Below, piece after piece: positions 9,001 to 12,000 of a DNA stretch of 30,285 nucleotides (within the stretch, counting starts at the first letter, position 1; the number at the start of each line of letters is the position of its first letter). The DNA is taken from IMG/VR virus record IMGVR_UViG_2703718804_000003; one strand, given 5' to 3'. The DNA comes from a virus (lineage: Duplodnaviria; Heunggongvirae; Uroviricota; Caudoviricetes). The position numbers are program-made.

Positions 9001-12000
9001 TCGGGCGAACATATGAGAGTTTGTGTTTGATTTTCACACGGTTCTCATCAAACGGTTCGATTTCCAGGTTGAGCGAGACCTTACCTTTGGTTTTCGTGTT
9101 CATCACACCGGAAGCGACTTCACTGAGAACTGCGCCGATTTTGGTTTCAAATACGCCGCCGTCCAGCTCCCCGATAAATGCCTGCACATCAGTACTGCGT
9201 TCGCTAGCCATTTGCTGCTCCTCATCATATCGACCCTGCAAGGTCGGTTGGTTTCTCCACAAAACAGAGAAGAACACCTGCGGTGCAGCCGCCCGGATGG
9301 ATTGGGTTATGAGCCCGTCGTCCGGTGATGCTCTTCTCTGTTTTGTAAAAAGAGCGGTACCAGCCGGAAGCAAGTGTACAAACTGGTACCGCCAGGACTA
9401 CACACAGCATAAAGTTGTGGTGCCGGGTGCCTCCCGGTGCCTGGCGAAGGTTGCACACCAGACGGGTGGGTATCCACAGAAGGTCGACTGTCAGCCTCAA
9501 CCTTAACCCGCGTGCGCTGAGCCGCATTCACCACAACGCTAAGGATTCTCTTTGGTTGAAAATACTTGGCTGTTATGTGCCTGTCTTTTCACCACTTCAG
9601 GCTCGGTGGTATCTTGGTGTTTTCATATAGCCAAGAAGGAAATAGTTATGACCAAAGAAGAAAAAATTCTTTATTTATTCCAACTATCGGTTAAGACTCA
9701 CACTGCATATCAGACTGCTGCCATGACATCAGATAAAAATTACAGTACGTCAGAAAACCCGATAGACGACATAAGCAAGCTTTACGATAAGTTCGAAGCA
9801 CTACTCGATAAAAAGTTTGCTGAGGCTGGGCTTGAGTGATTGTTGAATAATCGACAAAACCCAACTTAAATTTTCGTCAGTGGGCTCGATGCCATGTGCG
9901 GTGAGCTCACTTTTCAAAACTCCAAGTAATTCAGAGCTAATTTTCAATATATCTGCTTGATTTCTAACTATTCCCACTTTTTCCTCCCTTGGTCTACGCG
10001 CGGTCATGTTTTACGCCCAAACGACTTCACAGTTATTGTTTAAAATCTGGACTTTCATTTCATACACCTGCTTTAACATGAGTGCCTAGTGGCACAACAT
10101 GACTCAACGAATCATCCTGGACTTCATATGCCCCAGGCGGCTACTTCGTGGGTGTCCTGCCTGTTCGTTGTCTTAACACCTTTAAGTTGTAGTTTAGTTG
10201 TGGTTTTGAATGTTGTCAACAACTTTATGTGGTTTGAACGAGTAGCCAAGGAGTGCAAGGATTATCAAAAAAAGGAGGTTGTATGGAAGACGCGCTTTAC
10301 GCTTTTAATTACACACAGAACCGGGACAAGTTATTTGCTAACTTGATTAGCATCATTGATGGAATCATTGCAGATGGAGTTGTCCGTGAAGAGGAGGTTC
10401 TTTACTTAGATACATGGTTACTTGAAGCAAAGCAGATTATCAATAATGGAGTTATAAAAAGTCTATCTGCTCGGGTGTCGGATATTCTTGCGGATGGAAT
10501 AATCACATCAGAAGAACGTGATGACCTTAAAAATAGCCTTCTCCAAATACAGAGGGAAATTCTTGATATCCCTGAAATTTATTTTTACTCCAAGGATGTA
10601 GATGTCCATTTACTTAATGGACTATGTAAAGGATTAATTGCTGATCGGAACTTAACTCAAGAAGAAATAAGATATCTTAATTGGTGGCTTGAGCAAAATG
10701 GAGCTTTGAAGAACAACTACCCAGGAAAAAAACTTTATGCACTTGTAAAGGAAATTCTTAAAGATGGTGTTATTACTGAAGATGAGAGTTTAACTCTACA
10801 TAAGGCATTAGTAGACTTCACAGGATGTGACTTGGAAAGTGGGGTGGTGGATGGTTTGGCGACCAGGCTGCCTATTGATGTAGGGGCTTCGATAGAGTTA
10901 GAGGGTAAAACCTATTGTCTTACAGGCACTTTTGTTGCAGGAAAGAGAGCCGTAGTTGAAAATTTGATTAAAAATGCTGGTGGGAACATCAGTAGTGGAA
11001 TTACTCAAAAGTTGGATTTTTTAGTAATTGGGACGCTTTCCTCCCGTGATTGGAAATTCTCTAGTCACGGAAGGAAGATCGAAAAGGCTATATCTTATAG
11101 GGATGATAATGGTGCAAAACTTAAAATTATTTCTGAAGAAATGCTTTTCGATGCATTACCAAGTTCGCGATGACCAGAATACCCTACCTATAACATGAAT
11201 TCTGGCTCGTCTATCTTCAAAGGTGAGTATTTCATCTGGGTACTCATCTTTGTTGAAGCTTCTAAGAATCAAGCCACCGTCAGGTAAGTTGATAAGTATT
11301 TTAACCCTTAGCAATATACCATCTCGTACGGCATAAAGATCGCCATCACGAATAGGAACGGTTTGAGAAATATCAACGGCAACAAGATCTCCATTATTGA
11401 GAACCGGTAATAAACTGTTCCCCCATATTTGTACGATCTTGGCATTAGATGCACATACGCCAGATTTTCTCAAATCTGCTCTTCTTAACGGAAACCAGTC
11501 AATAGCTGATTCAACTATTTCAGCCAGACATCCGTTACCTGCCGATAACTCGACATCTAAAACAGGAATGTTTACGAAAATATCGGGGTCTAATGCGGTG
11601 CTTTCTGCTTCTTTTACAACAAGATCAGGTATGGATGCGTTGTCTTCAATACCAAGTTGTAACCACTTTTGTGATACACCTAAAACTTTTGCAATTTCTT
11701 TAATTTTGCGCGGTTGTAGAGTTTCGCCATTCTCTATTTTTGCTACAGATTGTTGTGAAAGTCCAATTTTTTCAGCTAGTTGAGCTTGGCTCATGCCAGC
11801 TTTCTCTCTACCTATCTTTAATCGTTCTGCCAGTGTTTTCACAACATATCCCTCTCTTTTTTGATGAGGTTACAACTTTATGTTTTAGCTTTCCAACACC
11901 TAAAAGTTGTGGTAAAAGTTGTTAATGTTGTATTCTTGCAGCTCGTAACAACTTAACTACCAAAAAAGGAGAAAGCTATGACACCTGAGCAATTAGCCTT

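Follow-up and report, generated by a model that had tools for sequence, protein, structure and literature searches.

A probable early-left member of the STnc100/PasD RNA superfamily, with a predicted pseudoknot, ahead of yfdP in a Shiga toxin prophage of Escherichia coli

A structured RNA in the block

What lies in the block at 9212-9647 of the virus record IMGVR_UViG_2703718804_000003, between the first gene of a leftward operon (yfdP) and the small open reading frames (ORFs) beyond it? The stretch of 30,285 nucleotides analysed here (the window) is a Shiga toxin (Stx) prophage of E. coli, with 100% identity to strain ARS-C301 (NZ_CP132983). A first-pass annotation had described the block as GC-rich, non-coding and rich in inverted repeats, and had proposed that, with no N-like gene in sight, read-through into the operon may depend on an RNA element such as the put sites of phage HK022. 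The block does contain a conserved structured RNA element, and its sequence and fold indicate that it very probably belongs to the STnc100/PasD superfamily, as an early-left, pseudoknotted member that does not code for protein. That annotation was centred on two downstream hairpins, and it had neither the core of the RNA at 9414-9537 nor the kinship with the family.

The inverted repeats were all recovered, with coordinates correct to within a few bases. The minus-strand transcript of 9212-9647 folded at -169 kcal/mol, compared with -137 +/- 5.9 for shuffled sequences (z = -5.4), and none of 100 shuffles folded as stably. The repeat given as 15 bp proved longer, 9259-9283 pairing with 9322-9346 (25-nt arms, 84% complementary), and the RNA of 9259-9346 folds into a hairpin whose stem has 23 bp (dG -49 kcal/mol, z = -8.0 relative to shuffles). 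The terminator-like repeat, described as 9 bp, has 10 perfect pairs, GCGGTACCAG/CTGGTACCGC, joining 9354-9363 with 9383-9392; it extends to 13 pairs in the fold (dG -21.2, z = -3.6) and is followed by CUCUUUUU on the minus strand, so that the hairpin at 9355-9390 makes a good leftward intrinsic terminator, as had been suggested. The small hairpin at 9231-9246 is present too, and folded alone it is not more stable than shuffles (z -0.3). A long-range helix absent from the earlier list, 9414-9422 with 9529-9537 (GTTGTGGTG/CACCACAAC), closes a domain of several hairpins, the core.

Relationship with STnc100/PasD

In a permissive Rfam scan of 8800-10300, the STnc100 model (RF02076) matched 9345-9559 on the minus strand with 42.1 bits and an E value of 2.2e-7, and the alignment spans the full model, positions 1-206 of 206. 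This score is below the curated gathering score of 47, and the copy is absent from the scan at the gathering threshold. No riboswitch or antitermination RNA of Rfam matched the block. The window also contains a canonical copy, of what is called below the late class:

21089-21302 (+), canonical STnc100 copy, Rfam 194 bits, between stxB and nanS-p

We regard this copy as a paralogue of the left element within one prophage. The two have UGGUGAAU and 22 identical bases, CACCGGGAGGCACCCGGCACCA, in common, and a pattern search allowing up to 3 mismatches found no further copy in the window, the pR operon included, for a total of two.

Like STnc100/PasD, the left element has a closing helix ending in UGGUG/CACCA, then AAU, a first hairpin, a hairpin ahead of the CCGGG-AGGCA-CCCGG hairpin, and a linker of ~25 nt before an intrinsic terminator. 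The core fold and the invariant blocks UGGUGAAU ... CCGGGAGGCACCCGGCACCA are found under one closing helix, and the terminator, here at 9347-9393, comes 20-30 nt past the core in both. The left element differs in its first hairpin, GCG-GCUCAG-CGC instead of CCCCC...GGGGG, and in the middle of the domain. It is located in the early-left leader downstream of cI, whereas STnc100/PasD copies have Q on one side and nanS-p or lysis genes on the other, and it has an additional upstream motif and a long downstream hairpin.

The STnc100/PasD family itself is already known. Eleven copies are transcribed in EDL933, one of them seen by Northern blot (PMC5331693), and late-class copies are found as terminated RNAs of ~200 nt in lysogens (PMC5331693, PMC8550237). 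STnc100 promoters are bound by RpoD in Salmonella LT2 (PMC10794520), PasD has Hfq-dependent stability and RIL-seq targets (PMC8550237), and PasD2 ranks first in abundance among the RNAs of CsrA ternary complexes (bioRxiv 10.64898/2026.08.12.744399). A 2026 survey of Pas RNAs, which connects PasD with STnc100 and locates both in the vicinity of Q and esterase genes, has no mention of yfdP, yfdQ or DUF2303 (bioRxiv 10.64898/2026.05.13.724894), and the element is not described in the literature on ymfH, SfV/SfIV or ST64B. The early-left subclass, its composite unit of ~360 nt, the pseudoknot, a third, more diverged core variant and the identification of K-12 ymfH as RNA appear undescribed.

Genomic context and distribution

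The genes and the predicted promoter that define the context in the window are as follows.

8849-9211, leftward, yfdP; a YfdQ/DUF2303 gene and then yfdR lie beyond
10191-10219 (-), predicted early-left promoter pL: TTGACA, 17-nt spacer, TAAACT (promoter scan match 10/12)
11156-11842 (-), LexA-like cI, with cro and a CII-like gene to its right
18840-19277, Q
19775-20731, stxA
20741-21010, stxB
21516-23480, nanS-p

The leftward operon starts where it had been said to start, at the yfdP start codon (9211). The sequence at 10219-10191 (-), which we take as the predicted pL, is embedded in operator-like ACAACTT/AAGTTGT repeats that are also present in the cI-cro intergenic region at 11860-11960. 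Counted from this predicted pL, the RNA domain is ~630 nt into the leftward transcript and directly ahead of yfdP.

IMG/VR was scanned with the pattern TGGTGAAT, 80-110 nt, GGCACCCGGCACCA, which gave 120 loci with 70 distinct cores, and the window proteins were mapped onto the 120 loci to assign contexts. The invariance of the core blocks is partly an artefact, because the pattern demanded those bases. Two context classes were seen. Late-class copies (first hairpin CCCCC...GGGGG) are co-oriented and lie 1-3.8 kb past Q, with nanS-p or holin/lysozyme genes a further 200-700 nt on; the short pR'-tR' unit precedes them, as do any inserted genes (tRNA, stx or others). Early-left copies (GCG-GCUCAG-CGC) are co-oriented as well, 0.9-1.9 kb downstream of cI where cI was detected and ~200-300 nt before the first gene, which is yfdP, yfdR, rdgC, kil or xisE. 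For the left copy and all 30-odd early-left copies, cI lies on the upstream side and yfdP, yfdR or a similar gene on the downstream side, and none occurs in the late context. Tandem late-class cores, mostly ~270-500 nt apart and of differing subtypes (102 nt and 118 nt, for example), were seen upstream of nanS-p or lysis genes in loci L015, L026, L030, L040, L057, L075 and L124.

The element occurs in SfV, SfII, SfIV, ST64B, phiES15, Stx phages and the K-12 prophage e14. In SfV the order is cI, orf33, terminator, element, orf32 (= yfdP) ... xis, int, and the annotated phage ST64B agrees with the early-left context. The gene next after the element is kil in phiES15, rdgC in an E. coli prophage and xisE-intE in e14, where the element (93.7% identity) is annotated as ymfH (b1142). 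Among 5426 complete E. coli genomes, 2771 have a match to the element, 1855 of them over at least 80% of its length. A species-level genome scan added Lelliottia, Pseudescherichia, Buttiauxella and Pantoea, with cI/cro-type neighbours where the context was visible.

Core fold and pseudoknot

The core comprises the following parts.

9414-9537 (-), core RNA domain, ~125 nt: 9-bp closing helix, three hairpins, pseudoknot
9529-9537 with 9414-9422 (-), closing helix P0, GUUGUGGUG with CACCACAAC, then AAU
9514-9525 (-), first hairpin P1, GCG-GCUCAG-CGC, then CGCGGG
~9497-9503 (-), strand S1, AAGGUUG, then a variable hairpin
9439-9463 (-), hairpin P3, GUCUGGUG/CGCCAGGC, whose loop CAACCUU (~9447-9453) pairs with S1 as the pseudoknot
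9423-9437 (-), hairpin P4, CCGGG-AGGCA-CCCGG

When 74 distinct cores were folded with RNAalifold, three helices were recovered: the closing helix, the first hairpin and the CCGGG/CCCGG hairpin. Two pairs of the closing helix covary (CG 26, UA 21, UG 11; GC 36, AU 28, GU 9), and so does the first hairpin (CG 54, GC 9, UA 8). The CCGGG/CCCGG hairpin is invariant among the 74 cores, but the search pattern required its bases. Lelliottia, Pseudescherichia and one Buttiauxella copy have a longer closing helix of ~16-22 bp, in which the changes are compensatory.

The P3 loop was seen by eye, and then with an automatic parse, to be complementary to S1, just 3' of the first hairpin. The partners vary together, as CCAGUC/GACUGG, AUCAGCG/UGCUGGU, CUGGUG/CACCGG and AGACUGACAAA/UUUGUCAGUCU; in the early-left class they are AAGGUUG/CAACCUU in the window and AAGGCUGG/UCAGCCUU in phiES15. 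At least 6 contiguous pairs were formed by 85% of matched partners (66 distinct combinations), compared with 20% when partners were swapped between copies. In a structure-blind MAFFT alignment of the 74 cores, 80.7% of cells pair, the pseudoknot included, compared with 38-48% when the partner was slid by 1-3 columns, and changes on both sides were seen for all 6 pairs of P3 and for 5 of 6 in the pseudoknot. De novo mutual information on the MAFFT alignment was too noisy, owing to clade structure and register shifts, and was replaced by these partner-permutation and slid-partner controls. The STnc100 model of Rfam does not have the pseudoknot. Recognition of the element gives the STnc100/PasD family a second context, in the early operon, and its model a covarying pseudoknot.

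A third core variant occupies the same locus in L147 (3356-3490, Stx2a_1447), L008 (~4001-4273) and L146 (mEp460). It keeps the closing helix and AAU, and has a first hairpin GCGCA-GGCUGA-UGCGC, an altered middle and a last hairpin CCGG-AGAUCAGCA-CCGG, with terminator, long hairpin and yfdP downstream as in the window. The STnc100 model did not detect this variant even at E <= 1. Terminator-only BLAST hits in N-bearing phages (mEp460, cdtI, Stx2a/2c) had suggested a terminator without a core; the third variant is present there, and the comparison is hence no test.

The block as a protein gene

Some annotations place a protein here. In MG1655 the gene is ymfH (b1142), many genomes have a hypothetical protein, the e14 ORF has a weak PHROG match (phrog_33599), and over-expression of ymfH is reported as a trigger of the retron-Sen2 toxin RcaT (bioRxiv 10.1101/2020.06.22.160242). 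That the block is a gene for YmfH in K-12, and for a frameshifted hypothetical protein in the window, is nonetheless extremely improbable. The frame is broken in the window, where 9225-9534 (-) is a 'frameshifted hypothetical protein' in the PGAP annotation; no gene is annotated at the element in SfV; the e14 ORF starts inside the closing helix and continues through the terminator and the long hairpin; and the substitutions in the RNA helices are compensatory. The first-pass annotation had regarded the frames open on both strands as spurious, which agrees with the homologues, every one of which has 2-4 frames open on both strands. No frame is common to E. coli, ST64B, phiES15, Lelliottia, Pseudescherichia and Pantoea. 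Core lengths run from 110 to 124 nt with differences that are not multiples of three, and together with the lack of a conserved frame this shows the block to be non-coding.

On this evidence the K-12 annotation is corrected: ymfH is very probably an RNA element, which elsewhere is annotated as a hypothetical protein or is unannotated. The e14 ymfH (L005 5070-5381, minus strand) includes, as a cloned ORF, the RNA core, terminator and long hairpin. The triggering of RcaT by 'ymfH' over-expression may be an effect of the RNA and not of a protein.

The composite unit and its terminator

The boundaries of the conserved unit were read from an alignment of the window, SfV, e14, ST64B, phiES15 and others. 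Conservation begins at AUACCACCGAG (9612) and stops at GUGGAGAAAC (~9250); outside, sequences and genes differ, and upstream of 9612 the window, SfV and e14 diverge completely. The order within the unit is upstream motif, core, linker, intrinsic terminator and 23-bp-stem hairpin. The parts around the core, with the elements that follow, are:

9577-9612 (-), upstream motif AUACCACCGAGCCUGAAGUGGUGAAAAGACAGGCAC, a small CCAC/GUGG hairpin then AAAAG, the 5' boundary of the unit
9559-9587 (-), weak sigma-70-like promoter candidate read from the sequence: AAGACA, 17-nt spacer, TATTTT
9394-9413 (-), linker UUUAUGCUGUGUGUAGUCCU, single-stranded, ~20 nt
9347-9393 (-), intrinsic terminator tL: GGCGGUACCAG, loop, CUGGUACCGCU, then CUUUUU
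9259-9346 (-), long hairpin HP2, 23-bp stem with a branched top
9250-9261 (-), 3' boundary motif UGUGGAGAAAC, then yfdP, rdgC, xisE or another first gene
9209-9246 (-), small hairpin CGACCUUGCAGGGUCG (9231-9246), Shine-Dalgarno GAGGAG and yfdP ATG (9211)

Of 32 distinct early-left contexts, 23 have the upstream motif, which precedes the core by 61-161 nt; it was found in none of 101 late contexts. In L147 (3236-3350), L009 (~3870-3990), L140 and L141 a module of ~130 nt stands between this motif and the core. It has a 12-bp closing helix, GAUGAGAGYAUU/AAUGCUCUCAUC, and T-arm-like hairpins, CUGG-UUCRAUU-CCAG and GUCCG-UUCRAUU-CGGAC, then ACCGGYA, and resembles the 3' half of a tRNA; a tRNA or tmRNA identity for these relatives was rejected, as ARAGORN found none. 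BoxA-like words (UGCUCUUUCC, UGCUCUCUUC, UGCUCUCAUC) abut the 5' side of the closing helix in L135, L144, L140, L141 and L009, from Pantoea, Buttiauxella and a Salmonella phage, and in some copies they double as a strand of the 12-bp helix that closes the inserted module.

A terminator ~24-28 nt past the core was found in 19 of 29 distinct early-left contexts, a count to which the long-looped terminator of ST64B, missed by the scan, is extra, and in 72 of 86 late contexts. The stems have 11 distinct sequences in the early-left class and 32 in the late class. Recurrence at a fixed distance with so many stem sequences is strong evidence that termination at this place is selected. The linker sequence GCUGUGUGWAGUC is conserved in E. 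coli, ST64B and phiES15 though their terminators differ, for which reason it looks like the seed of a small RNA (sRNA); no sequence complementary to it was found within the window. HP2 is shared by E. coli, e14 and ST64B, and from the length of its stem it is a plausible RNase III substrate. The E. coli and ST64B versions differ by a single compensatory pair (G-C to A-U) and by several G-U changes.

Lelliottia, Pseudescherichia, Buttiauxella and some Pantoea have neither the terminator nor the long hairpin. In such copies the core leads into a UAUGGAGA/GUGGAGAA-type sequence, a small hairpin and the start codon, and in Buttiauxella and Pantoea the UGUGGAGAAAC motif comes directly after the core. 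As the core is kept where the other two are missing, it is the ancient part, living in the 5' untranslated region (UTR).

Possible roles of the element

We tentatively read the unit as a leader or attenuator from which an STnc100-like RNA is released, at the head of the early-left operon (yfdP-yfdQ-yfdR onward; in SfV and other relatives the operon ends in xis-int), and we give this reading slightly less than an even chance. RNA polymerase from pL after loss of the repressor, or from a weak local promoter, would transcribe the domain, and a large share of the polymerases would stop at the terminator and release the RNA. Its layout would be that of an Hfq-type sRNA, with a structured 5' domain, the linker as seed, a terminator hairpin and a U tail. 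Polymerases that read through would make operon mRNA carrying the long hairpin, a likely site of RNase III processing or stability control. The element would in this way gate and dose early-left expression, and double as a source of sRNA.

In a second explanation the element is, like STnc100/PasD, a stand-alone, trans-acting sRNA moron with its own promoter at ~9559-9587 and its own terminator, giving lysogens an Hfq- or CsrA-binding RNA of ~215 nt; it would have no role in cis, and the early-left operon would only be its neighbour. Its homology to validated sRNAs, the abundance of PasD2 in CsrA complexes noted above (bioRxiv 10.64898/2026.08.12.744399), the typical sRNA layout with a conserved linker, and a -10-like hexamer just 5' of the Rfam alignment start speak for it; the promoter candidate ends at 9559, where that alignment starts. 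Still, we think it unlikely. The operon always has the element at its head and in its own orientation, after pL and ahead of the first gene, terminator-less variants are embedded in the 5' UTR, and the candidate promoter, itself doubtful, is not conserved across genera. Reg-Seq of e14 detected activity of the promoter region under 1 of 39 conditions and silence under the other 38, and ymfH-xisE-intE belongs to the SOS/YmfT iModulon (PMC12132413). These e14 data fit induced transcription from pL better than a constitutive local promoter.

The order of parts in the leader recalls phage lambda. There, pL is followed by a regulatory RNA site (nutL), a long RNase III-type hairpin and the ribosome-binding site of the first gene (N). 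The element region has a similar order but no boxA/boxB or N, and RNase III cleavage is suggested by the 23-bp stem only. The family searches agree with the earlier claim that no N-like gene is present: the small ORFs between cI and yfdP, compared with Pfam and PHROGs, gave no N family. A 68-aa ORF at 9801-10007 (-), which starts with MTARRPREEK and has 4 Arg among the first 22 residues, fits no known family; it was rejected as a conserved N-like partner, being in 1 of 31 related loci only. What lies between pL and the element varies, namely this ORF here, YmfJ in e14, Orf33 in SfV and nothing obvious in ST64B. A regex scan of the pL and pR leaders found no boxB-like hairpin, and the sole boxA-like word in them is the terminator tail, not conserved in SfV or e14. 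With no N family, boxB or conserved boxA, a lambda-type N/nut system is excluded as far as sequence can show.

The analogy with HK022 put, suggested in the first-pass annotation, did not hold at the level of sequence or structure. When putL and putR (HK022 27.6-30.1 kb) were compared with the element by blastn-short, only chance words of 7-9 nt matched, and no structural similarity was seen. Both are structured RNAs in the pL operon of a lambdoid phage without a recognisable N, upstream of terminators that early-left expression must pass. However, the put sites are ~70 nt with two stems, whereas the element is ~125 nt with four helices and a pseudoknot; putL is adjacent to pL, whereas the element is ~630 nt from the predicted pL; and put sites are in both the pL and pR operons, whereas the element has no pR-proximal copy, its other copy being in the late region after stxB. 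Its relatives also terminate at their own terminator. The put RNAs suppress terminators with no added factor, through the zinc-binding domain of the RNA polymerase beta-prime subunit, and rpoC mutants of this domain block put. Membership of a put family was rejected on the lack of similarity and of a pR-proximal copy.

A processive antitermination RNA that binds polymerase and replaces N/nut, in the manner of HK022 put or Bacillus EAR, would account for the lack of an N-like family and of boxA/boxB in the pL and pR leaders, for the lack of a conserved protein gene beside the element, and for a core that is kept where the terminator is missing. The element heads two long operons, early-left and late, at least one terminator lies between pL and xis/int, and the pseudoknotted fold of 110-130 nt with invariant bases is similar to EAR in size and complexity. 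We consider this improbable, however, as there is neither similarity to putL/putR nor an Rfam antitermination match, no copy in the early pR operon, and a late operon already served by Q. Moreover, the late-class relatives are terminated RNAs in lysogens, just upstream of the lysis genes, where suppression of the terminator would be expected to express holin and endolysin (PMC5331693, PMC10794520); from this we infer that the domain has no suppressing effect on the terminator next to it, which is the chief point against a put-like mechanism. A related proposal, also with only a slim chance of being right, is that the core shared by both classes acts in cis as a polymerase- or Nus-factor-binding RNA of a new processive antitermination or elongation-control class. 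If so, many N-less lambdoid prophages, e14 included, would have the element at the start of each of two long operons, and the sRNAs of lysogens would be terminated by-products.

The element may instead sense a ligand or protein (a metabolite, CsrA, Hfq or a Nus factor) and decide termination or translation of the first gene. The invariant unpaired GGUGAAU, CGCGGG and AGGCA loop and the pseudoknot are typical of binding pockets, the terminator is at a fixed distance, P4 and the conserved UGUGGAGAAAC contain GGA motifs, and PasD2 leads the CsrA ternary complexes (bioRxiv 10.64898/2026.08.12.744399). In the Pantoea, Buttiauxella and sal3 copies a boxA-like UGCUCUUU/UGCUCUCU stands directly 5' of the closing helix, but the corresponding stretch of the window is poor (AAUCCUUAGCG). 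A sensing attenuator seems quite unlikely to us. A riboswitch-type expression platform was rejected, the 5' arm of the terminator making 5.49 contiguous pairs with its own core and linker and 5.28 with those of foreign copies; no Rfam riboswitch matches, and part of the base invariance is an artefact of the search pattern.

The leader/attenuator reading has points against it too. The local promoter on which it may partly draw is not conserved in Lelliottia or ST64B. Terminator-less cores in 5' UTRs mean that neither termination nor sRNA release can be what the core itself is conserved for. So elaborate a fold, with its pseudoknot and invariant single-stranded bases, exceeds the needs of a base-pairing sRNA and hints at a specific partner, and the supply of xis and int on induction would be unexplained if most transcripts stop at the terminator. 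Finally, the Northern, RIL-seq and ChIP-exo data concern the late class only (PMC5331693, PMC8550237, PMC10794520).

A phage leader that yields an sRNA would have a parallel in Stx phages. Sy et al. (PNAS, 2020) reportedly described StxS, an Hfq-binding sRNA made from the pR'-tR' leader until antitermination. Like the element, StxS comes from a phage operon leader ending at an intrinsic terminator. It differs in its unrelated sequence, in its transcript of ~70 nt and in being governed by Q at pR', with no antiterminator known for the element. The element marks the place at which to ask how phages of the SfV/e14 type, without recognisable N/nut, pass a terminator into the xis/int operon.

Other features of the region

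The 11-mer ACAACTTTATG occurs at 9408-9418, 10219-10229 and 11872-11882, i.e. in the element (3' arm of the closing helix and linker) and in the operator-like repeats at pL and cI-cro. It could be a chance match built on the helix sequence ACAAC, or a repressor half-site within the element.

Between pL and the element, the ORFs at 9648-9839 (+) (63 aa, phrog_2605) and 9801-10007 (-) (68 aa, phrog_15476) are convergent with an overlap of 39 nt, and each is present in 1 of 31 related loci. Given the position of the 63-aa ORF, transcription from pL must cross this gene antisense. A gene for a 296-aa BRCT-domain protein (phrog_3989) at 10283-11173 (+) lies as an insertion between cI and pL; it is convergent with cI, whose 3' end it overlaps by 18 nt, and is a probable moron.

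The pR operon has isrK at 13163-13239 (+) (61.6 bits) and a C4 antisense RNA at 13264-13351 (+) (82.4 bits). The pair lies within or beside an ORF at 12803-13954, as a P1/P7-type immI-like antirepressor control region, and it also accompanies the element in L008, L146 and L147.

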